A stretch of 64,000 bases of DNA from a virus. Taxonomy: Duplodnaviria; Caudoviricetes. The stretch spans positions 1 to 64,000 of the IMG/VR virus record IMGVR_UViG_3300033072_000683; one strand, written 5' to 3'. The position numbers and the translations under genes are program-made. The notes beneath the pieces were generated by a model. It ran no database searches. It saw nothing but the letters and a program-made list of their open reading frames with translations, and was not told the origin of the DNA. This document shows, piece after piece, positions 1,608 to 60,487 of the stretch (its first letter is position 1; every line of letters starts with the position of its first letter).

Positions 1608-3746
1608 ATGAAGCTTGGAGTTGACGTTAACGAAGTAACCCTGTCAGGGGTGGGTGCGACTGGGGAGTTCCGCATCCGTAATTCTGCTAAGGCCTTTAAG
1701 ATTCTGTCCGATGGCCTTTATTCGAACAAAATCCGCGCAATCATTCGTGAGCTGTCCTGCAATGCTGTAGACAGTCACGTTGCCGCAGGTAAGCCCGATG
1801 TGCCCTTTGAGGTTCATCTTCCTACTATCCTTGAACCCTACTTTGCGGTAAAGGATTTTGGACTCGGCCTGAGCGGTGATCAAGTCACCAATATCTACAC
1901 AACCTACTTTGAATCCACAAAGACTGATTCCAATGACTACATTGGCGCGCTGGGCCTGGGTTCGAAGTCTCCTTTCTCCTACACGGAAAACTTCACGGTA
2001 ACTGCTATCAAGGATGGCATTAAGCGCATTTATAGTGCGTTCATTAATGAATCCGGTGTTCCTTGTGTTGCTGAGATGAGCACCGAACTTACCGATGAAG
2101 CAAACGGTGTTGAGGTTAAGTTCTCGGTAACCAACCGACACGATTACAACAGCTTCCGTCATGAGGCGCAGGAAGTTTTCAAATGGTTCAAGCATCAGCC
2201 TGTTATCACCGGTGTTGATAACTTCAAGGTACAACCGGCTGAATTTAAGGAACGAGATATTGTTCCTGGTGTTCACACTATGGGTGGCTTTAATGAATAT
2301 TACGGTGCGCATTCTATTGCGATCATGGGTAATATTGCATATCCGTTGAACAAGATTCCGGAACCTGCCAAGCATTTTGGCAATCTTGCTGCACTACTTG
2401 AGTGTGGGCTGGTATTGGAATTCCAAATTGGCGAGCTTGATTTTGCTGCATCGCGTGAGGAACTGAGTTACATTCCGCAGACTCTTGCAAGTATCAAGAA
2501 TAAACTGCAATTGCTGAATGCTAACCTGACCAAGCACCTTGCAGAAAAGGCTGACAAGATCGAGAACGAGTGGGAACGTGCCATTTATCTGGTTGAGCAA
2601 TATCAGACTCGTCTTTATAAGAGTGCAGTTCCGAAATATGTTGCTGACACGAAGTTTGCACTTTTCAACCCGAATCAGCATTACGGCCGCCACGAGTTTG
2701 AATTTACCGATGAACAGCTGAAAGAGCACAACCTTGAGCTTGTTGCATTTCGCGCAAGCCACGGATCTACCAGCAAGATGACGGTAATGCACCAGCGTTA
2801 CAATAAGCAAAGCAAGCTCGAGACGGTCGGTATAATCACGGTTCAGCCGGGTGTTGTATTTGTTCTGAACGACTTGAAGACTGGTTGCCAGGCACGGGCA
2901 CGTTATCACTTTGCACAAGCCGGCAAGAATGTAACGGTTTACTGTGTTTCGTCTGCATCCGAGCTTGATGCACGTCAGCCCGACTACGATTGGTTTATCA
3001 AAGAGATTCATAATCCCCCGGTGATTATGAAGGCTTCTGAGTTAGATAAGCCGATCAAGAAGAAGCCCACCACTTCGCAAGGTCTTATGTATATGAGACT
3101 GAAGATGGATAGACGACAAGGGTACGAGGATTCGTATTGCTGGGCACCTTATACCGAGGAGCTTGACGACAATGTGGAATATGCCTACGTCAACCTGAGC
3201 AATTATCAGGCGGTCTCGAAAGATGGCACTGCCGCCTTCAATGTGCATCGCCTGAAATCGTGGATCGATGATTCCGGCGTCAAGGCTCTTACCGATATCA
3301 AGATCATTGGTGTTCGTAAGAACAGAGTTGAAGAAATTGAAGGTCTGGACAATTGGGTCTGGCTCGAAGACAAGATCCGTAAGGAAATTGCCAAGATCAA
3401 CGACGCTCAAGTTATCCAGATGGTTTCGGCTGAGATGCTTGACAATTACAACGACAGAATCTATACTAATGATTCAGTTGCAAAGGCAGTTGGGCCTGAT
3501 TCTCCGTATGCACAATATGTGAAAAAATACGGAAAAGCTAACCGAACTGGCAATGTTGCAGCATTGGTACAGCTCTGCGCCGAATATGGCAAGTCCGTCC
3601 AGGTCGACGCAGTGAAGAAAGAAATTTCGGACGCAAAGAAAGCAATTGTTAGCCGCTATCCTTTGATTAAGCATGTTCATCATGCTAATGAGAATGATGT
3701 GGCGCATTACATTAAACTTGTAGACACTCAACAGGAGAAAAACTAA
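1608..3746 (+). CDS. rIIA: rIIA-like protein with N-terminal GHKL/HSP90-type ATPase domain
   Basis: IRELSCNAVDS, VKDFGLGL, GALGLGSKS motifs; directly followed by rIIB. Confidence 0.9.
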   Translation: MKLGVDVNEVTLSGVGATGEFRIRNSAKAFKILSDGLYSNKIRAIIRELSCNAVDSHVAAGKPDVPFEVHLPTILEPYFAVKDFGLGLSGDQVTNIYTTYFESTKTDSNDYIGALGLGSKSPFSYTENFTVTAIKDGIKRIYSAFINESGVPCVAEMSTELTDEANGVEVKFSVTNRHDYNSFRHEAQEVFKWFKHQPVITGVDNFKVQPAEFKERDIVPGVHTMGGFNEYYGAHSIAIMGNIAYPLNKIPEPAKHFGNLAALLECGLVLEFQIGELDFAASREELSYIPQTLASIKNKLQLLNANLTKHLAEKADKIENEWERAIYLVEQYQTRLYKSAVPKYVADTKFALFNPNQHYGRHEFEFTDEQLKEHNLELVAFRASHGSTSKMTVMHQRYNKQSKLETVGIITVQPGVVFVLNDLKTGCQARARYHFAQAGKNVTVYCVSSASELDARQPDYDWFIKEIHNPPVIMKASELDKPIKKKPTTSQGLMYMRLKMDRRQGYEDSYCWAPYTEELDDNVEYAYVNLSNYQAVSKDGTAAFNVHRLKSWIDDSGVKALTDIKIIGVRKNRVEEIEGLDNWVWLEDKIRKEIAKINDAQVIQMVSAEMLDNYNDRIYTNDSVAKAVGPDSPYAQYVKKYGKANRTGNVAALVQLCAEYGKSVQVDAVKKEISDAKKAIVSRYPLIKHVHHANENDVAHYIKLVDTQQEKN

Positions 3747-4745
3747 ATGAGCAAGCCGATCCCGTATCTGCTTCAGGGTAAGAACATTATCCTGGTTATT
3801 GATGGTAAGAGTCACACCATCAGCCGCGATACTCACATCGCGTATGTGAAGATCGTTGACGCCCTTAAGGCGCAAGATTGGGACGCTCTGCGCGACCTAG
3901 TTGAGCCGAAGAAGGCGATCGTGAACTTTGGTAAGGGCTTTGTGTCGATTAACGACAACAAGGTCATGTGGAAGGGCAAGCCATTCCACAATGCATTGGC
4001 AAACCGCATGATCGAGATGTTCCAAGATGGCTTCCCGATTGACCCGATGGTACGCTTCATGGAAAACCTGATGCAGAACCCGTCCAAGCGTTCTGTGGAC
4101 CAGGTGTACGGCTTCTTGGAAAAGAACAAGTTGCCGATCACCGAGGATGGTTACTTCCTGGCGTACAAGAAGGTTCGCACCGACTATAAGGACATCCATA
4201 GCGGCACTATCAGCAATCACATTGGTGCTGTTGTCGAGATGGATCGAAACCTTGTCGACGACAATCCTGATTCGCATTGTTCTGTTGGCCTGCACTTCTG
4301 CAGCGAAAGCTATCTGGGCCACTTCGGTGGTGGTGGCGATCCGGTGATGATCCTGAAGATCAATCCGGCTGATGTTGTGAGCATTCCGACTGACTATAAT
4401 GGTGCCAAAGGTCGTTGCTGCAAGTATGAAGTCGTTGGACAAGTGAACGGCAACCCTGCCGAGGCATTTGCCAAGATTGTCAACACTGAGCATTCGAAGC
4501 CCGTTGCACCGGTGAAGAAGTTGGAACCTACCGCTGCATGGCCTTTCCCGACCGGTGAAGAAGCTGCCGCTACCGTCACCGAAGACGATGATCAGTTGTA
4601 CGACCTGGTCCGTGTGCATGGCGAATGGACTGAGTTCTACGACATGACGCTTGCTGAAGCTCGTGCCAAGGTTCAGAAGAATCTTGAGCAGAAGAAGGCG
4701 AAGCTGAAGATCGTTAAGGCCGGTACGGACGAAGAAGTCCAGTAA
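3747..4745 (+). CDS. rIIB: rIIB-like protein
   Basis: PITEDGYFLAYKKV, CSVGLHFCS, KINPADVVSIPTDYNGAKGRCCKYEV motifs. Confidence 0.92.
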   Translation: MSKPIPYLLQGKNIILVIDGKSHTISRDTHIAYVKIVDALKAQDWDALRDLVEPKKAIVNFGKGFVSINDNKVMWKGKPFHNALANRMIEMFQDGFPIDPMVRFMENLMQNPSKRSVDQVYGFLEKNKLPITEDGYFLAYKKVRTDYKDIHSGTISNHIGAVVEMDRNLVDDNPDSHCSVGLHFCSESYLGHFGGGGDPVMILKINPADVVSIPTDYNGAKGRCCKYEVVGQVNGNPAEAFAKIVNTEHSKPVAPVKKLEPTAAWPFPTGEEAAATVTEDDDQLYDLVRVHGEWTEFYDMTLAEARAKVQKNLEQKKAKLKIVKAGTDEEVQ

Positions 4746-4748
4746 TGA

Positions 4749-4766
4749 TAGGGGCTACGGCCCCTA
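4749..4766 (+). terminator. GC-rich hairpin after rIIB (terminator or RNA-stabilising)
   Basis: TAGGGGC-TACG-GCCCCTA; weak U-tract. Confidence 0.5.
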
Positions 4767-4775
4767 CCATTTCCG

Positions 4776-5165
4776 ATGAATAAGTTAGTCATAATTCTGC
4801 TGCTAATTTGTTCGGCCAGCTATGCTAAGGAGCCTGAGCAGGTTGTCGAAGTCCCTTTAACACCTGTTCAGATTCTGAAGTCCTTTGAAGAGCAGAATGT
4901 ATTAGATATTTCCACACTGCCAGATTTGGTAGTAAAGGAAGAGTTGGTTTCGGCATGTATGGAAGCATACATTAAGAAACAATCAAATTCGTACTCGAAA
5001 ATTGCACAGAATAATCTGTACGAATTGATACATAACTTTGATCGTATAGCTTCACGTATTGCAGGAAAGAAGACGACACCGGATTCAATCCCGCAAGAAG
5101 AGAAAATCGAAGCTCTTGCAAGATTGCAGTGCGAAGCGTACTATACGATGGGAGTTTTGAAGTAA
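4776..5165 (+). CDS. Hypothetical exported protein
   Basis: N-terminal signal-peptide-like MNKLVIILLLICSASYA. Confidence 0.65.
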   Translation: MNKLVIILLLICSASYAKEPEQVVEVPLTPVQILKSFEEQNVLDISTLPDLVVKEELVSACMEAYIKKQSNSYSKIAQNNLYELIHNFDRIASRIAGKKTTPDSIPQEEKIEALARLQCEAYYTMGVLK

Positions 5166-5171
5166 GTTTGA

Positions 5172-5358
5172 GTGTGTAGCTTTGTAGAGCTGGATGCGAA
5201 CCTGCAGTTTTGAAGTAGAGCCTATGTGAAAAACGCTGTCGACGGCGTACATGCTTCTAATTAAGGACGGCGCGGCACTTTTCACTACAATGAGAATGTA
5301 ACCGCGGGGGATCCGAAATGCAGGACGGGGAGCTTAGGTGGGGTGCCTAAGCACACAC
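5172..5358 (+). ncRNA. Candidate structured non-coding RNA (unassigned family)
   Basis: No + strand ORF; nested stems GTGTGT/ACACAC, CCTGCA/TGCAGG, GAAGTA/TGCTTC, ACGCTG/CGGCGT, CGCGG/CCGCG, GCTTAGG/CCTAAGC; followed by a terminator. Confidence 0.6.
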
Positions 5359-5361
5359 AGG

Positions 5362-5395
5362 AAACGGTAACGGGGAAACTCGTTACCGTTTTTTT
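5362..5395 (+). terminator. Intrinsic terminator
   Basis: AAACGGTAACGGG-GAAA-CTCGTTACCGTTT then T-tract. Confidence 0.85.
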
Positions 5396-5406
5396 ATGGA
5401 GTTTTT

Positions 5407-6288
5407 ATGCTACGATATGTGGGAATAATTGGTTATGGATTTGTCGGAAAGGCAACAGCCGAAGTCTTTAGACACAATTCTCAGCTTCTGGTAATTGATC
5501 CGAAGTCTGCACCTGTATTAGAGAAATCTGATTACCTTGATATAGTCAGAAAGAATACACCGATTGTTTTTGTCTGCGTGCCTGTGCCTACGCTAGAGAG
5601 CAGAGCCGTTGATATGACGATAATTTACGACGTTTTAGACAGTTTAGCCAGGGTCGGCTATGCAGGCATCGTCGTTATAAAGAGCACAATACCGCCTGAA
5701 CAAGTTCACGAAATCTATACAAAATACGCTAAAGATTCTATCCTAAAAAAGGAAGGTCTTTTGGATATTGTTTATTCTCCAGAGTTTTTGAGAGAACAAC
5801 ATTGGACTGAGGATGCAGTAAATCCGAGAATGATTATACTTGGCGGTGATTATAAGATTTGCAGACAAGTTCAAGATTTCTATGAGTTCAACGGATATCT
5901 AAAAACCCGTCCACGGGTGTTTATCACATCTATGATGGAAGCATCTCTTGCTAAGTACACTATCAACACTTTCTTGGCTACAAAAGTTGCATTCTTTAAC
6001 CAGATTTACAAATACTATACGGAGTTGAATGAAGGTAAAGAACCACACTACGAGATGTGGGACGATTTTACTGAAATGATAGGTTCTGATTTCAGAATGG
6101 GTATTTCCCATATGAAAGTACCCGGACCTGATGGTCAGTATGGTTATGGTGGAACATGTTTCCCTAAGGATGTGAAAGCATTTATCGGTTCAGACAAGAG
6201 TGGTCACCTTTCGATTCTACGGGAAGTTGAGTTAGCCAATACGAAAATTAGGTTGACAGGTAAGGCGGAAGACAGCAATAATAGCTGA
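5407..6288 (+). CDS. UDP-glucose/GDP-mannose dehydrogenase family nucleotide-sugar dehydrogenase (short form)
   Basis: GIIGYGFVG Rossmann motif, VIKSTIPP, YSPEFLRE, GYGGTCFPKD (catalytic Cys). Confidence 0.88.
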   Translation: MLRYVGIIGYGFVGKATAEVFRHNSQLLVIDPKSAPVLEKSDYLDIVRKNTPIVFVCVPVPTLESRAVDMTIIYDVLDSLARVGYAGIVVIKSTIPPEQVHEIYTKYAKDSILKKEGLLDIVYSPEFLREQHWTEDAVNPRMIILGGDYKICRQVQDFYEFNGYLKTRPRVFITSMMEASLAKYTINTFLATKVAFFNQIYKYYTELNEGKEPHYEMWDDFTEMIGSDFRMGISHMKVPGPDGQYGYGGTCFPKDVKAFIGSDKSGHLSILREVELANTKIRLTGKAEDSNNS

Positions 6289-6743
6289 TGAATACTATCG
6301 AAGAAGCCAAGCGCCTGCACAAACTTGTGGTATCCTGCAAACAGGATCCATTAAAGAATTTTGTAGCACAAGTCGACGCAGATAGACTTGCGGAACTGCG
6401 ACAAGAAAATCTTGATAAATTGTTTGCAGAAGCAAGAAAACTCAAGGTTAGATATATCTACATCGGCACCGATGAAATTTGCGGATGCGAGGATGTAAAA
6501 GATTCCGGTGGTACCTGGCCTGCAATGTGGAAAATTGCAGAGCGTGTGGGATTTCCCGGCTCTTGTGGAAATAGCGATCAATATCAGTGCCATGAGGCAA
6601 ATTTGGTTTTCCCTCATACATCATATGGTGGATGGGACCTAAAGGAAAATAGAAAACTAACCGATAAGGAAGCAGAAGAAAAGAAGTTCCGTAAGGTTGT
6701 TGAACTCTTCAGAAAGACAAAAAATGAAATACCTGTTCCTTGA
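6288..6743 (+). CDS. Hypothetical protein
   Basis: 151-aa ORF with stop/start overlap with upstream gene. Confidence 0.65.
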   Translation: MNTIEEAKRLHKLVVSCKQDPLKNFVAQVDADRLAELRQENLDKLFAEARKLKVRYIYIGTDEICGCEDVKDSGGTWPAMWKIAERVGFPGSCGNSDQYQCHEANLVFPHTSYGGWDLKENRKLTDKEAEEKKFRKVVELFRKTKNEIPVP

Positions 6744-7095
6744 CGATGAAAGAATGCCACGAGATGTGACCTGGGTCCTCATCGGCGGGGTAGGTTCTTG
6801 GGGTGCCGATTGGCAAATTGTTAGAAACCTCCAAGAAGCCAAAGAGTGGGTCCTGAAAAATGGATTCCCTGATGTGATCAGTTTTGATCACGATTTGGGT
6901 TTGAAGCATTACGAGGGCGATTATTCGGATGAAAATACCGGATACGATTTCGCGAAATGGTTAGTCGAGTATGACATCGATACAAATACTATGCCTGGTA
7001 ACTTTAAGTTCACCATACACAGTAAGAATCCTACTGGCTCGGAAAATATCCGTTGCCTGATGGAAAATTACATGAGGCATAAAGGAATGGTATAA
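6724..7095 (+). CDS. Cyclic-phosphate-processing Receiver-like domain protein
   Basis: YLFLDDERMP, ISFDHDLG, TGYDFAKWL, IHSKNPTG motifs. Confidence 0.75.
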   Translation: MKYLFLDDERMPRDVTWVLIGGVGSWGADWQIVRNLQEAKEWVLKNGFPDVISFDHDLGLKHYEGDYSDENTGYDFAKWLVEYDIDTNTMPGNFKFTIHSKNPTGSENIRCLMENYMRHKGMV

Positions 7096-7110
7096 TTTTT
7101 CCATTCAATT

Positions 7111-7118
7111 GATAAATA
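7111..7118 (+). promoter_or_regulatory. Late promoter GATAAATA
   Basis: Octamer match in intergenic region. Confidence 0.6.
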
Positions 7119-7196
7119 CTCGTAACACCCTTAGGACCATTGGTGTTACGCCAACAGGCGTCGCGGGGGATGATTCGCTACCATCCCCCGCTTTTT
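7119..7196 (+). ncRNA. Candidate ~78-nt late small RNA or attenuator (two hairpins)
   Basis: CGTAACACC/GGTGTTACG stem then GCGGGGGATG/CATCCCCCGC + TTTTT, directly after GATAAATA. Confidence 0.45.
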
Positions 7197-7209
7197 ATAT
7201 GGAGTTGCT

Positions 7210-7386
7210 ATGAAGCTTATTGAGATTTTTGAAGCAAAAAACGCTAATAAGAAGAAAGTAACACCTCCTGCGCCTCGCAATTTCGTGGCTAAGCATGCAC
7301 AAACATCTGGTGCAGGCTCCCACACCGACAAGAAATATAATCGCAAAGAGAAGCATAAAAAGCCCTTTGACGAGTCGGAAGAATAA
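7210..7386 (+). CDS. Small basic protein, 58 aa (MKLIEIFEAK...PRNFVAKHAQTSGAGSHTDKKYNRKEKH...)
   Basis: GGAG SD at 7201-7204, clean ORF below track cutoff. Confidence 0.65.
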   Translation: MKLIEIFEAKNANKKKVTPPAPRNFVAKHAQTSGAGSHTDKKYNRKEKHKKPFDESEE

Positions 7387-7468
7387 TCCCTAACTGCAAA
7401 AACTCAAGATTATTTGTGTTTCTATTTTGGCATAGCTAAAATAGTTGACGTATCATTGAGGATATAAC

Positions 7469-36528: not shown

Positions 36529-37930
36529 ACAATTAATAAGACTCTGGATTCAGTACCTAAAGAGCCTGAAGATAGTAGAACTAAATTCAGGACCTGACGG
36601 TAAGCTTACCTACAACCGTCCAGTTACATTACAAGATATTGTTACCTTCCTTGAGGTAAAGACTGAATATACACTCGACGAAATTGGCGATGCTGTACGT
36701 TCGGTAATGATGAAAAGTCCTACATATGATGTTCCGCAGAATCCAGAACTAGGGCACGATAAGGATATTCCGCAAGGACAGGTAGCATTGCCCGGACAGG
36801 AAGTACCAAAGTTGCCAGGAAAGAAACCCGGCGGCGAACTCTCTACCTGGATGCACAATGACATGACACCGGGCAATCCAGAAAAGCCTAAGACACCCGG
36901 AACCGGTGTAGCAGTTAGACAGCAAGGAGGAGTGGGCCCGGCAAGACAACAGCGACCAGCAAATAATCAAGATGATAATGTTATTGATGCTGAGCCAGTA
37001 AACACCAAGGTAGGGCATGATCCTAATAGTGTCTCTGATGTTGAATACAGAGATGTTCCGCCGAAGGAAAAGAAAAAGGCCTGGTGGAAAAGAATGTTCA
37101 AGGAGGACATTACAGATAAACAGGGTCCTGGCATAGATGAAAAAGATGTTGAACAAATTTTCAATACTCTAACATCAAGTCCACCCGGAAGTTCGGCAAA
37201 GGACCAGGGAGCATCCGGAAAAGGTCAGAGAGCAACCCAATCGGCAAAAACACCGAAAGGTAAAAATCCTGCACCGGCAGCATCTCCGGAAGAGCAACAG
37301 GCCAAGAAAGAGGAAGACTTGCGTAAGCTGAAGAGGCTTATTCGTGATGTCATGACTGATCCACAGCGTAAATCCCTCTGGAGAATGCTCAAAGATGAAC
37401 CACTCACTGAAAGCGAAATTAATAAGGCTGATATTAAGGCCATTTTGCAGACAGCCAGTGATACGAGAAATAAACCATCCGGTCTTGGCAGAGTATTTAA
37501 GGGACTAAGAAAGGATAAGATCGACGTTAACGATCTTCAACAAGCTTGGAAAGAAGCCGGATTTCCGGATGACACTCGTGACATTAAAAAGTTACTATTA
37601 GGCCACGGGTTCAGCGAGGACGATATTAAGAAAGTCTTCTCCCAGGTTTTTGGCACATATAAAAGGGGTAAGGAAGAAGAGCCTGATATCCCTCAACAAA
37701 GTGCAACAATGAATAAGATTGTGCAGTATGCAAAGAGCAACAATCTTGTTCCTGATTTAATTGCTTTCCTTGAAGATGAATACGGATTTAAAGAATCCGT
37801 ACAGAGCGATAAGATGATGATTGAAGACATCAGACAATTGTTCACAGCCATAGTCAAGGAAGAACGTTCTGGCAGAGCTGAACTCATTAAGAAATATGAT
37901 AGAGATCAACTCGGCAGAACAAAGAAATGA
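36518..37930 (+). CDS. Late hypothetical protein with long low-complexity linkers
   Basis: 470-aa ORF overlapping both neighbours. Confidence 0.75.
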   Translation: MDSKQLIRLWIQYLKSLKIVELNSGPDGKLTYNRPVTLQDIVTFLEVKTEYTLDEIGDAVRSVMMKSPTYDVPQNPELGHDKDIPQGQVALPGQEVPKLPGKKPGGELSTWMHNDMTPGNPEKPKTPGTGVAVRQQGGVGPARQQRPANNQDDNVIDAEPVNTKVGHDPNSVSDVEYRDVPPKEKKKAWWKRMFKEDITDKQGPGIDEKDVEQIFNTLTSSPPGSSAKDQGASGKGQRATQSAKTPKGKNPAPAASPEEQQAKKEEDLRKLKRLIRDVMTDPQRKSLWRMLKDEPLTESEINKADIKAILQTASDTRNKPSGLGRVFKGLRKDKIDVNDLQQAWKEAGFPDDTRDIKKLLLGHGFSEDDIKKVFSQVFGTYKRGKEEEPDIPQQSATMNKIVQYAKSNNLVPDLIAFLEDEYGFKESVQSDKMMIEDIRQLFTAIVKEERSGRAELIKKYDRDQLGRTKK

Positions 37931-39309
37931 ATTTAAGCGAAATTTCAAAGGGCATCACACACATAGAGGAACTTGACACTTCCGATTTCTTGCGTGTTCT
38001 GACTAATTTGGTTGAATACGAGGTTACTGAGAAGGTCGATGGTTCCCAGATCTTGTTTGGAATCGACGATAAAGGATTCTATACTTCGCGAGAAACAAAG
38101 GGCGGTGATAGAGTTTATGCTGTCGAAGATTACAATATTCACTTTTCCACAACCTATAGGCGTGCAGCTCATAAGTTATTGGAAAGTGTGTTGCCACAGC
38201 TGAAGGAAGCTGGTCTGAAGCCAGGTGACCAAGTTGAGGCCGAGGTACTCTACGGCGAACTTCCGAACGTAGTGCCCTACTCGGCGGATAGTAACTATCT
38301 AATCTTCTTGCGTACCACTGAGGGTAGTGTAAATATTGATCGTTTGAAGCAAAAGCTTGATGGTCATTCGCTTTCTGTCACTCTTAAGGCTCCGATAACA
38401 GAGGATGGCAAATCAGTTGTTCTGGTGGAAAAAGCTGACCACTGGACATTCTCTCGTGTACCTCAAATTTCAGTAGAATATGCCAGAGTGCAACGCCTGG
38501 TTGAAAAGAAGCTAAAGGTGATGAGGGCATATCTCCTTGAAGTTACCTATGCCGGTATTCCCAATATGACAATTGAGAAGACGCCGCTGAATAGAATTCC
38601 AGCATGGTGTCCTCAATCTGATTGGAAAACTGTTAAAGAAGAACTAAAGGTCCACAAGGAGCGAGTCAAGTTCGAGTTGGACGAGATGAAGATGGAGATT
38701 AAAGAACTTCTCCTCGACCATTTTGTTCGAAAGTACAGTAGCATGTTTGGCCCCATTGAGGGTGGTTGGATCGAAGGCGTAGTTTTGAAGCATAGAGAAA
38801 ACGGCTCTATGGTAAAAATTGTCGATAAAAAGACGTTTGGTGTGATACGGGAGTTCGCCTGGAAAATACGCAATGACCTGACTGATAGACCGCGTGGTGT
38901 GAACGACAATTACAGCTTTATGGGCGAAGTATCCGTTGGGCTTGCCACTGCCTTGGGCCATCCCGAGCTAGGTACTATTCAATGTAAAAAATACAGCAAA
39001 CAGATGGTTCTTGAAGATATTTCGATTGGGAATATTAAAGAGTATATGCTATCGTTCCTTGAGAAGAAGAAGGTTGAACTTGGGAACAAATTAGATAAAT
39101 ATGAAGAAGAAAAGCATAAACTCGTTCTTAAGGTCGTCGAAGGAACGTTCAAAGATACGTTCGTTTATGCGGACACGGGAATTGATAGACGGACGAGAGA
39201 AACATTCGCTTCGGTTTATGAGCAGATCCAGGTACTTATGGATAAAATTTCCACTGCTCAAAGCCAGGATGATTTAATACAGGCGATAGCAGGGCGTTAC
39301 TTGACATGA
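37927..39309 (+). CDS. ATP-dependent ligase-fold (covalent nucleotidyltransferase, RNA-ligase-like) protein
   Basis: Motif I EVTEKVDG, Ia YTSR, III VEAEVL, IV IEGVVLK, V MVKIVDK. Confidence 0.75.
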   Translation: MNLSEISKGITHIEELDTSDFLRVLTNLVEYEVTEKVDGSQILFGIDDKGFYTSRETKGGDRVYAVEDYNIHFSTTYRRAAHKLLESVLPQLKEAGLKPGDQVEAEVLYGELPNVVPYSADSNYLIFLRTTEGSVNIDRLKQKLDGHSLSVTLKAPITEDGKSVVLVEKADHWTFSRVPQISVEYARVQRLVEKKLKVMRAYLLEVTYAGIPNMTIEKTPLNRIPAWCPQSDWKTVKEELKVHKERVKFELDEMKMEIKELLLDHFVRKYSSMFGPIEGGWIEGVVLKHRENGSMVKIVDKKTFGVIREFAWKIRNDLTDRPRGVNDNYSFMGEVSVGLATALGHPELGTIQCKKYSKQMVLEDISIGNIKEYMLSFLEKKKVELGNKLDKYEEEKHKLVLKVVEGTFKDTFVYADTGIDRRTRETFASVYEQIQVLMDKISTAQSQDDLIQAIAGRYLT

Positions 39310-57181: not shown

Positions 57182-58237
57182 ATGTCCAAACGATTCAAGA
57201 GGGCCATCCTCATTGGCCGATTCGAACCAGCCCACAACGGGCACCTCGCTAACTTCCTACAAGGCTTTGAGATTGCTGACGAAGTAATCATCCTTCTGGG
57301 TAGTTCTTTCCAACCTCGCACGCCCAAGAATCCTTTTACTTGGCAAGAACGAGATGAAATGATTGCCGATGCTATCACTGCGGCAGCACCTGGGAAGGTG
57401 TTTTCAATTCTTCCGATTCCTGACTTCAAGTACAGCAACAATGCCTGGATTGCTGAAGTTCAGCGAGTTGTTCGCGAGCATGAACCCGATATTGATGACA
57501 AGGATATTGCTATCCTTGGTTACGATAAGGATGATTCCAGTTGGTACAACCATGCTTTCCCTGAGTGGACTTTTGTTCCGCTGAAGGGCTTTGTCGAATT
57601 CGGTTCCAAGCCGATTGACGCTACCAAGGTGCGTGAACTGTTCTTTGAAGGTCACCTCGATTTCATGCGCAGTGCCGTTCCGGAGCCTGTCTTCAAGTAT
57701 ATGCAGAATTGGGCCAAGACCCCTGCATACCAACAAATGGTGGAAGAATATGTCTTCTACAAGGATTACCACAAGAAGTGGGATCCCGCTCCTTTTGTGC
57801 CTATCTTCCAGACTACTGACGCAGTGGTTATTCAAGGTGGTCACATTCTTCTTATCGAGCGAGGTCACTCGCCCGGTAAGGGACTTTGGGCACTGCCCGG
57901 TGGCTTCCTGAATCCTCGCGAGACTATCGAAGATTGCATGGTCCGCGAACTGTTGGAAGAAACCAAAATCAAGGTCCCCGAGATTGTCCTGCGTAAATCG
58001 ATTACCTATCACAAGGTCTTTGATCATCCGGATCGCGACCTGCGTGGTCGCACTATCACGCAGGCATATCTGGTTGAGCTGACCGGCGGTGACGGCAAGC
58101 TTCCAAAGGTGAAGGGAGCCGACGATGCCAAGAAAGCCGAATGGTTCAAACTTTCCGAAATTGATACCATGGGCGAGATGATCTACGCAGATCACCAACA
58201 CATTATCCAAACGCTGGTAGCCCGCGCAAGGAAGTGA
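57182..58237 (+). CDS. nadM: Bifunctional NMN adenylyltransferase / Nudix ADP-ribose pyrophosphatase (NadM-Nudix)
   Basis: IGRFEPAHNGH, KNPFT..ER, DATKVR; Nudix GGFLNPRETIEDCMVRELLEET, GADDA. Confidence 0.93.
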   Translation: MSKRFKRAILIGRFEPAHNGHLANFLQGFEIADEVIILLGSSFQPRTPKNPFTWQERDEMIADAITAAAPGKVFSILPIPDFKYSNNAWIAEVQRVVREHEPDIDDKDIAILGYDKDDSSWYNHAFPEWTFVPLKGFVEFGSKPIDATKVRELFFEGHLDFMRSAVPEPVFKYMQNWAKTPAYQQMVEEYVFYKDYHKKWDPAPFVPIFQTTDAVVIQGGHILLIERGHSPGKGLWALPGGFLNPRETIEDCMVRELLEETKIKVPEIVLRKSITYHKVFDHPDRDLRGRTITQAYLVELTGGDGKLPKVKGADDAKKAEWFKLSEIDTMGEMIYADHQHIIQTLVARARK

Positions 58238-59104: not shown

Positions 59105-60487
59105 ATGAAATTTGCAAAGAACATCATTCTCAACAGCGATAGTTACAAGTACAGCCAGTGGGTGCAATATCCTATGGGCACCGAATACGTTTACTCGTAC
59201 ATCGAGTCCCGCGGCGGCGAATACGACAAGCTGGTTTTTATCGGCCTCCAAGCTTTCCTTCGTGAGTACATGACCACACCGGTTACCAAAGCAATGGTTG
59301 ACCAGGCGGAAATGATTCTGAAGGCGCATGGTGAGCCGTTTAACCGCGAAGGTTGGGACTATATCGTGCGTGAGCACGGTGGCCGTCTCCCTGTCGAAAT
59401 CAAGTCCGTGGACGAGGGTTCGGTAATGCGTCTGAAGAACGTGCTTGTTTCGATTGTCAACACTGATCCGAAGTGCTACTGGCTGACCAGCTTCTTGGAA
59501 ACTGCCCTGCTTCGCGCAATCTGGTATCCTACCACTGTGTGCAGCAACAGCTACCATAGCAAGGAAATCATCCAAGAATTCCTGAACCGCAATGGCGATC
59601 CTTCGCTCATTGACTTCAAGTTGCATGATTTCGGTGCTCGCGGAGTGTCGAGCCTGGAAAGTGCTGCATTGGGTGGTATGGCACACCTGGTTAACTTCAT
59701 GGGCACCGACACTGTGTCGGGAATCATGGCTGCGATGGAATACTACGACGCACAAGTCTGTGGTTTCAGCATTCCTGCCATGGAGCACAGTACCGTTACC
59801 AGCTGGGGTCGTGAGAACGAAGTTGAAGCATATCGCAACATGCTGAAGCACTATGGTAAGCCTGGTGCCTTGCTTGCTTGCGTGAGCGACAGCTATGACA
59901 TCTACAAGGCTTGCGAGAAGTGGGGAACTGAGCTGAAGCAGGAAGTGATCGATAGTGGCGCGGTGGTTGTTGTCCGTCCGGACAGCGGCGATCCTGTTCA
60001 AGTCGTGAACGATTGCCTGCGAATCCTTGATAAGCACTACGGCCACACTGTGAATGCCAAGGGCTACAAGGTGCTGAACAACGTTCGCATCATCCAAGGT
60101 GACGGTATCAATCATCAAATGATTCGTGCCATCCTGACGGTGATGGATCTGAACGGCTACAGCGCCGACAACGTAGCTTTCGGTCAAGGCGGTGCGCTGC
60201 TCCAACAAATCAACCGCGACACACTTCAGTTCGCTATGAAGTGCTCGGCCGCCAAGATTGCTGGTAAGTGGGTGGAAGTGTATAAGGATCCTGTTACGTC
60301 TTCGATGAAGAAGAGCAAGAAGGGCCGTTTGATGCTCGTCACCGGACCGAATGGTGAATTTGTTACCAAGAACCTGGAATTTGGCACCGAAATCGATCTG
60401 CTGAAGACCCGCTTCATGGATGGCAAGCTCTACAACGAGACCACATTCGATCAGGTTCGTGCGTTGGCTAAGGAGACTGTTCGCTAA
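59105..60487 (+). CDS. nadV: Nicotinamide phosphoribosyltransferase (NAMPT/NadV)
   Basis: NSDSYKYSQ, KLHDFGARG, SIPAMEHS, CVSDSYD, VRPDSGDP, IIQGDG, FGQGG, KDPVT...KSKKG. Confidence 0.95.
   Translation: MKFAKNIILNSDSYKYSQWVQYPMGTEYVYSYIESRGGEYDKLVFIGLQAFLREYMTTPVTKAMVDQAEMILKAHGEPFNREGWDYIVREHGGRLPVEIKSVDEGSVMRLKNVLVSIVNTDPKCYWLTSFLETALLRAIWYPTTVCSNSYHSKEIIQEFLNRNGDPSLIDFKLHDFGARGVSSLESAALGGMAHLVNFMGTDTVSGIMAAMEYYDAQVCGFSIPAMEHSTVTSWGRENEVEAYRNMLKHYGKPGALLACVSDSYDIYKACEKWGTELKQEVIDSGAVVVVRPDSGDPVQVVNDCLRILDKHYGHTVNAKGYKVLNNVRIIQGDGINHQMIRAILTVMDLNGYSADNVAFGQGGALLQQINRDTLQFAMKCSAAKIAGKWVEVYKDPVTSSMKKSKKGRLMLVTGPNGEFVTKNLEFGTEIDLLKTRFMDGKLYNETTFDQVRALAKETVR

Follow-up and report, generated by a model that had tools for sequence, protein, structure and literature searches.

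The window, meaning the whole stretch of DNA analysed here, takes in positions 1-64,000 of an IMG/VR virus record that is 82.7 kb long and 21% complete according to CheckV, and nearly all of its long open reading frames (ORFs) lie on the + strand. Behind the genes rIIA and rIIB is a gap of 241 nt without a long + strand ORF (5166-5406), as the first-pass annotation had already recognized, and this gap is followed by a series of genes that includes cRec. The features of the region are as follows.

507-581: tRNA-Arg(CCU), upstream of the rII genes (ARAGORN; Rfam tRNA match at 507-578)
1608-3746: rIIA, upstream context
3747-4745: rIIB, upstream context
4776-5165, + strand: 129-aa ORF with a lipoprotein-type signal peptide, context outside the RNA
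5407-6288: short UDP-glucose-dehydrogenase-like ORF, the first gene downstream of the RNA
between the dehydrogenase-like ORF and the cRec gene: 151-aa ORF
6697-7095, + strand: cRec (PF20274) gene, context
downstream of cRec, in this order: 58-aa ORF, 391-aa protein, RNase-T/Rv2179c-like exonuclease

The 129-aa ORF, which begins with a hydrophobic stretch followed by a Cys and has no known family, is optional in that several relatives carry the RNA straight after rIIB. The dehydrogenase-like ORF (5407-6288) encodes 293 aa, compared with about 390-440 aa in cellular enzymes; it comprises the NAD-binding and central domains only, the C-terminal UDP-binding domain being missing, and its relatives are equally short. 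The 391-aa protein has no Pfam, NCBIfam or PDB sequence match, is unlike the XacN1 RNA ligase, and is poorly modelled in the Atlas. Three elements between cRec and the gene of this protein (7096-7468 in the window) recur in relatives: a strong terminator-like hairpin at about 7158-7196, the conserved, Lys-rich 58-aa ORF (7210-7386), and a conserved palindrome of ~33 bp just 5′ of the 391-aa gene.

Folded as a single sequence, the + strand of 5166-5395 reached -82.2 kcal/mol (z = -3.86), and none of 200 shuffled sequences folded as well. Such a fold is weak evidence, and relatives were sought for that reason. They were first reached through flanking proteins, which led to IMG/VR loci with a visibly conserved non-coding stretch and compensatory changes. 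Patterns derived from the best-conserved block of the RNA were then scanned in three rounds, which returned 27 viral loci, 59 metagenome loci (a handful of which are chance hits) and, with a second pattern, 36 viral loci. A covariance model made from a 20-sequence alignment gave 85 matches, 61 of them distinct, with one match per locus and one in the window. Altogether, ~65 distinct copies of the RNA were found in IMG/VR and JGI metagenome contigs, and each of three complete, terminally repeated genomes (362-369 kb) holds one RNA copy and one cRec gene. A blastn search with 4700-5900 gave no match among 50,697 records of cultured phages, and the covariance model, run with filters off, found no copy in the nearest cultured phages with rIIB (Xanthomonas phages XacN1 and Xoo-sp13). 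A pattern scan of 185,579 prokaryote genomes yielded three chance hits, none of which matches the model. Within reach of these searches, the predicted RNA family is confined to one lineage of uncultured jumbo phages of ~365 kb.

In a structure-blind MAFFT alignment of 20 homologues, RNAalifold found 58 pairs, 34 with compensatory double changes. After one correction (5269-5270 paired with 5313-5314), 99.0% of the cells in this alignment are paired and double changes occur at 36 of the 58 pairs; none of 500 shuffled alignments reaches any of these measures, and pairing falls to 35-47% when the 3′ partners are slid by 1-3 columns. The model-based alignment of all 61 distinct sequences likewise has 99.0% of its cells paired, with compensatory changes at 42 of 58 pairs and only 33-48% pairing in slid controls, so that the covariation among homologues that had been proposed as a check is indeed found. 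Among the paired cells, G-U (394) far outnumbers A-C (11), which identifies the folded strand as +, the same as that of the flanking genes and the T-run. These comparisons indicate that 5172-5358, together with the terminator hairpin behind it, is a real RNA gene on the + strand. Across the 61 distinct sequences, 49 of 194 RNA positions are invariant; the flanking proteins are only 40-80% identical.

The RNA comprises ten helices, with P1, P2, P3 and P9 meeting in an outer four-way junction and P3, the P4-P5 arm and the P6-P7 arm in an inner three-way junction. Its elements are listed below.

5172-5177, + strand: P1 5′ strand, paired with 5353-5358; 5 of 6 pairs compensatory, 100% of cells paired
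5178-5191, + strand: P2 hairpin, 5178-5181 paired with 5188-5191; all 4 stem pairs covary
5192-5200, + strand: junction strand J2/3; G at 5192, 5193, 5196 and 5198 invariant in the 61 distinct sequences
5201-5209, + strand: 5′ strands of P3 (5201-5206, paired with 5319-5324; 3 of 6 pairs compensatory) and P3a (5207-5209, paired with 5266-5268; 3 of 3)
5215-5261, + strand: P4-P4a-P5 arm, 5215-5221 with 5253-5261, 5225-5227 with 5249-5251, and 5233-5238 with 5243-5248; 14 of 16 pairs compensatory, an A-rich internal loop and a variable tetraloop
5269-5314, + strand: P6′-P6-P7 arm, 5269-5270 with 5313-5314, 5272-5275 with 5302-5305, and 5277-5284 with 5291-5299 (5297 bulged)
5319-5324, + strand: P3 3′ strand, paired with 5201-5206
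5325-5331, + strand: junction strand J3/9 with an invariant GGGG at 5327-5330
5332-5352, + strand: P9 hairpin, 5332-5339 with 5345-5352; 7 of 8 pairs covary, invariant GGGG in the loop at 5340-5343
5353-5358, + strand: P1 3′ strand, paired with 5172-5177
5363-5395, + strand: P10, the intrinsic terminator hairpin, with a 12-bp stem (5363-5374/5379-5390), a GNRA loop (5375-5378) and a T-run to 5395

Much of the fold drawn in the first-pass annotation reappears in this model. Covariation supports its closing stem (5172-5177/5353-5358), its long-range stem (5201-5206/5319-5324), the hairpin 5233-5238/5243-5248 with the 3-bp stem that encloses it, the stem 5272-5275/5302-5305 enclosing 5277-5284/5291-5299, and the hairpin 5332-5339/5345-5352. 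A 6-bp stem placed from 5212 exists in a different register, 5215-5221 with 5253-5261 being the pairing that covaries, and a 3-bp stem ending at 5314 had to be replaced by 5269-5270/5313-5314, where G-C changes to A-U in five distinct homologues, and by 5207-5209/5266-5268. The description of the gap as more GC-rich than its flanks was only partly right, holding for 5225-5374 (0.54, versus 0.35-0.45 in the flanks).

The variable parts of the RNA are its helices, and the invariant parts are single-stranded purines together with the P6/P7 internal loop. G accounts for 16 of the 21 invariant unpaired bases, which lie in J2/3, the P6 internal loop, J3/9 and the P9 loop. The P6′-P6-P7 arm is the most conserved block, with an invariant lower half and an upper part in which all four pairs covary; its internal loop (5306-5312) has four invariant G in two GG. 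About one in ten homologues has an extra hairpin of ~15-20 nt in the P9 loop, and the G run is kept. In most homologues, P1 gains 1-2 bp at its outer end and touches or overlaps the upstream ORF's stop codon.

A mutual-information scan of all column pairs placed a single non-nested pair among its top twelve, joining base 3 of the P2 loop to base 4 of the P7 loop (G-C in 35 sequences, A-U in 18 and G-U in 2). This pair is part of a loop-loop helix of 5-6 bp in the raw loop sequences, in which UGUAG of the P2 loop (5183-5187) pairs with CUACA (5285-5289) of the P7 loop (5285-5290). Changes are matched at four positions of this helix, as is one insertion of 1 nt, and a formal count gives 96% of cells paired and compensatory changes at three of five pairs. 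A covarying P2-P7 kissing helix is thus a predicted tertiary contact of the fold.

The intrinsic terminator that had been assigned to the RNA is present, starting 4 nt past the closing stem instead of 3 nt. Every homologue has a long intrinsic terminator ~4 nt past P1, with a stem of 10-14 bp and a full T-run. A GNRA tetraloop caps this stem in 36 of 51 distinct homologues, compared with 1 of 120 other terminator-like hairpins of the same contigs (Fisher p about 1e-23), and most of the remaining homologues have A-rich loops. Likewise, the terminator of the RNA is the sole GNRA-capped hairpin among ten terminator-like sites on the + strand of the window. Because the terminator stems differ widely, the GNRA loop is not explained by shared ancestry alone; a selected loop suggests that the terminator belongs to the fold and to the functional RNA, and implies both a docking contact and a mature end of the RNA at the terminator. 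A receptor for the tetraloop was sought by mutual information in the alignment, where no clear partner column was seen.

At most loci, 0-8 nt separate the RNA from the stop codon of the gene before it (rIIB or the 129-aa ORF), and no conserved sequence lies 5′ of its start at such loci. One locus, L072, is different: the RNA there sits behind an unrelated 265-aa ORF, away from rII, and is preceded by a promoter (TTGACA-17-TATAAT) that agrees with the sigma-70 consensus at 12 of 12 positions and whose -10 box ends 7 nt before P1. The promoter site is at L072:1067-1095 (- strand), and a 59-aa ORF, cRec and a small Lys-rich ORF lie downstream. This arrangement indicates that the fold works detached from the rII message, with a 5′ end at P1. 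At the other loci, the best sigma-70 promoter match before the RNA is 8 of 12 or lower, and we infer co-transcription with the upstream genes. Often 10-15 nt separate the T-run from the start of the next gene, too little for a promoter; at some loci, the spacer behind the terminator measures 70-190 nt or holds a conserved box. Such a box, ~45 nt long and nearly letter-for-letter conserved, separates the terminator from the dehydrogenase gene in one sub-lineage (L028:~1185-1235, also L012-L014, L026, L030, L032, L057 and L061). Neither the window nor G000-G004 has this box, which may represent a promoter or some other small element. In a single RNA-library run with matching words (5% share), one contig covers 5417-5561 in the dehydrogenase gene, contig-level data that are uninformative on the RNA. 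Synthesis would probably be early, by the host sigma-70 polymerase, and would usually yield the RNA as the tail of the rIIA-rIIB(-lipoprotein) transcript; at least one relative may make it from its own consensus promoter starting at P1. The terminator would set the 3′ end.

Known RNA families were searched with the 4227 models of Rfam 15, which include tmRNA, RNase P, SRP, 6S, Y RNA, pRNA, riboswitches, small ribozymes, and GOLLD, ROOL, OLE, raiA and HEARO. At the gathering score, the tRNA at 507-578 was the only match in the whole window. Relaxing the threshold to E up to 10 for 5100-5450 produced two chance hits, both on the terminator only, and at E up to 5, nothing was matched on the element in twelve homologous loci. 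ARAGORN found no tRNA or tmRNA at the element in the window or at the three complete-genome loci. The failure of the first-pass annotation to place the RNA in a known class is thus borne out by both programs. A likeness of 5295-5314 to the 3′ end of 16S rRNA (16 of 20 bases) was discarded as chance, since 103 of 300 shuffles score as high. The RNA is not described in Rfam 15, in the searched literature or in the jumbo-phage overviews of 2021 and 2026. The 2023 IMG/VR catalogue of candidate structured RNAs by Fremin et al. (PMC10690425) gives motifs of 29-151 nt only and may hold unnamed fragments of it. As far as these comparisons reach, the ~225-nt RNA is a previously undescribed family.

Taken at the sequence level, 5172-5395 of the + strand is predicted to encode a discrete, stable, compact and tertiary-locked non-coding RNA of ~225 nt. 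The suggestion of a new phage non-coding RNA is upheld by the conserved covarying fold, the tertiary contacts, the single copy per complete genome and the lack of an Rfam match. We regard it with moderate confidence, at about an even chance, as a stand-alone, trans-acting RNA, a pre-folded scaffold or decoy that shows its invariant G-rich loops to a partner. Such an RNA would be released, or accumulate as a stable species, early in infection and act in trans. The kissing loop and the tetraloop would lock the fold, and the invariant unpaired purines and the P6/P7 internal loop would be displayed to the partner. This would most probably be a protein, the commonest solution for RNAs of this kind, with a small ligand or a second RNA as less probable candidates. 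Motifs complementary to the RNA that might serve as targets occur in the window at chance level, with none enriched.

The gene directly 5′ of the RNA may be rIIB, the 129-aa ORF or another, the first gene 3′ of it may be the sugar dehydrogenase, the 151-aa ORF, cRec or another, and the presence of the dehydrogenase, the 151-aa ORF and the 129-aa ORF varies among homologous loci. cRec is the sole gene that is always downstream of the RNA in the homologous loci compared, L072 included. All homologues are from one phage lineage with conserved gene order, and context cannot therefore tell functions apart. The cRec protein has been predicted to act as a phosphoesterase on cyclic ADP-ribose or on 2′,3′-cyclic phosphates, linked to RNA ligases (Iyer et al., PMC7824862). 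The cRec genes of the cultured phages Atu_ph07, RSP15 and XaC1 are in tightly packed regions with no RNA-sized gap, and the link between the RNA and cRec is thus lineage-specific and may be mere synteny. RtcB and Rnl2-type ligases are encoded elsewhere in the three complete genomes, with RtcB >100 kb from the RNA. In the window, an NAD-salvage pair consists of an NMNAT-Nudix fusion and NAMPT (57182-58237 and 59105-60487), and a 460-aa ORF (37927-39309) has a sub-threshold RNA-ligase (PF09414) match at its N-terminus. The NAD-salvage pair, together with the RtcB, Rnl2-like ligases and cRec of the lineage, indicates a heavy investment in NAD and RNA-repair functions. Only the adjacent cRec and the phage RtcB, RNA-ligase and NAD-salvage genes suggest an RNA-repair or counter-defence role for the RNA.

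The alternative that survives best, though we consider it unlikely, is a cis-acting attenuator, in which the folded RNA and a ligand or protein would tune read-through at 5363-5395 into the downstream genes that include cRec, either as a riboswitch-like or protein-dependent leader or as an antitermination RNA of the put/EAR type. Its conservation is aptamer-like, the stems being variable and the junctions invariant, a pattern compatible with the invariant junction core and covarying stems of a ligand-binding riboswitch aptamer. The terminator lies 4 nt past P1, the next ribosome-binding site and start codon follow within ~10-15 nt at many loci including the window, and the order of promoter, RNA, terminator and genes in L072 is a classic one. 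The constant presence of cRec downstream is also in line with an attenuator, as are the lack of a promoter before the RNA at most loci and the often short distance from the T-run to the next gene, too small for a promoter there. However, no antiterminator is apparent: appended to the element, the 5′ arm of the terminator gives -0.47 kcal/mol, compared with -0.49 for shuffled arms and -16 for the terminator itself (n = 52). The terminators are long (10-14 bp) with full T-runs, and a selected GNRA loop is unexpected in a mere expression platform. Moreover, the first downstream gene varies, 70-190 nt or a conserved box follows the terminator at some loci, and no leader of this type precedes cRec in cultured phages. 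A narrower proposal, that of a riboswitch controlling the downstream nucleotide-sugar dehydrogenase, is not supported, given the missing antiterminator, the selected terminator loop and the absence of that gene at many loci (e.g., L019, L021, L024, L034-L037, L039, L040, L046 and L072).

Improbable in our view is an element acting on the 3′ end of the rII mRNA, in which the fold would block exonucleases or direct processing and would have no role in trans. At most loci, the RNA lies directly behind a stop codon and closes the rIIA-rIIB(-lipoprotein) transcript as its 3′ untranslated part, as such an element would. A terminator hairpin suffices for 3′ protection, however, and an RNA with 49 invariant positions, a kissing loop and a tetraloop under selection goes far beyond that need; the L072 copy stands apart from rII behind a promoter of its own.

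Quite improbable, too, is a self-cleaving or otherwise catalytic RNA that would free itself from the upstream mRNA and leave a 2′,3′-cyclic phosphate of the kind that cRec is predicted to process. The complex fold with its invariant core, a start 0-8 nt past a stop codon without conserved upstream sequence, and the predicted activity of the neighbouring cRec on cyclic phosphates (PMC7824862) would all suit a ribozyme. Against it, no Rfam ribozyme family matches the RNA, and transcription of the L072 copy would start at P1, which would make cleavage unnecessary there. The topology also differs from that of the HDV-like, twister, hatchet, pistol and hammerhead ribozymes, which counts against this reading.

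The P2 and P7 loops might pair between molecules rather than within one, giving ring-shaped or dimeric assemblies comparable to phi29 pRNA or to the homo-oligomers of GOLLD, ROOL and OLE, an outcome that we judge very unlikely. Each loop is complementary to the other but not to itself, and the two covary; covariation is blind to whether a contact is intra- or intermolecular. Helix lengths, however, make an intramolecular contact geometrically plausible, and the RNA has no tie to packaging genes and is not matched by the Rfam pRNA model.

More speculative still, and in our opinion a long shot, is an RNA that would bind a ligand or sequester a signal by means of its core of 16 invariant unpaired G, possibly G-quadruplex-like, and would work with cRec in counter-defence. 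It might capture or sense an immune signal derived from a cyclic phosphate or ADP-ribose, or a damaged RNA end, and if this were true, it would be the first RNA "sponge/sensor" of a phage anti-defence module. That the locus encodes no RNA, and is instead a small protein-coding gene or a DNA-level site (an origin, pac site or operator), can be practically dismissed: short ORFs do overlap it at 5085-5285 (- strand) and 5343-5471 (+ strand), but the changes are compensatory, 1-nt indels and loop insertions of ~15-20 nt are tolerated, the G-U versus A-C strand asymmetry is strong, and the element is exactly framed by the terminator and, in L072, by the promoter.

The evolutionary record of this RNA is unusually clean, with nearly every helix backed by compensatory change, a covarying kissing loop and a terminator that appears to have been recruited into the fold. 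To our knowledge, complex tertiary-folded RNAs of such size are few, and almost all that have been followed up gave an interesting function or structure, including riboswitches, ribozymes, guide RNAs and RNA-only assemblies. The genomes that carry it belong to huge phages with RtcB, several RNA ligases, cRec and NAD salvage, the toolkit of an arms race centred on RNA and NAD. It is a well-defined, testable candidate for a new phage RNA class, of a size that suits chemical probing, crystallography and scaffolded cryo-EM.

Several known systems share features with the RNA described here. It recalls riboswitch aptamers on a terminator platform, such as the kissing-loop riboswitches for lysine and purines, in that several helices meet at a junction with an invariant core, distal loops make contact and an intrinsic terminator comes immediately 3′. 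Different from these, it has no antiterminator, its terminator loop is selected, its downstream gene is inconstant and it usually stands at the 3′ end of an operon and not in a 5′ leader. With CsrB/RsmZ and 6S, the sponge RNAs, it shares a probable action in trans, an end at a terminator and the display of repeated purine-rich motifs; its GGA-type motifs, however, are largely inside helices, and it has neither a hairpin array nor a 6S-like rod nor an Rfam match. The Y RNAs and YrlA of rsr-rtcB operons resemble it in the closing stem formed by the 5′ and 3′ ends, in a genome with RtcB and RNA-repair genes, and in an adjacent enzyme predicted to act on cyclic phosphates. No Y RNA model matches, however, there is no tRNA-like module, and the phages have no Ro/TROVE gene (none in G000-G003), a host Ro partner being possible.

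Similar to phi29 pRNA, the RNA is phage-encoded, probably transcribed early, within the range of ~170-230 nt, and has two loops with covarying complementarity; its sequence and architecture are nevertheless different, no pRNA model matches it, and it occurs in 365-kb rII phages, away from packaging genes. It likewise matches none of the models of GOLLD, ROOL, OLE, raiA and HEARO, is smaller, at ~225 nt compared with 200-800 nt, and is found in one jumbo-phage lineage and not beside tRNA clusters. Like all five of these orphan classes of large structured RNA from phages and bacteria, it was found by comparative genomics and has many covarying helices and tertiary contacts, and like GOLLD and ROOL, which are often phage-borne, it is carried by phages.
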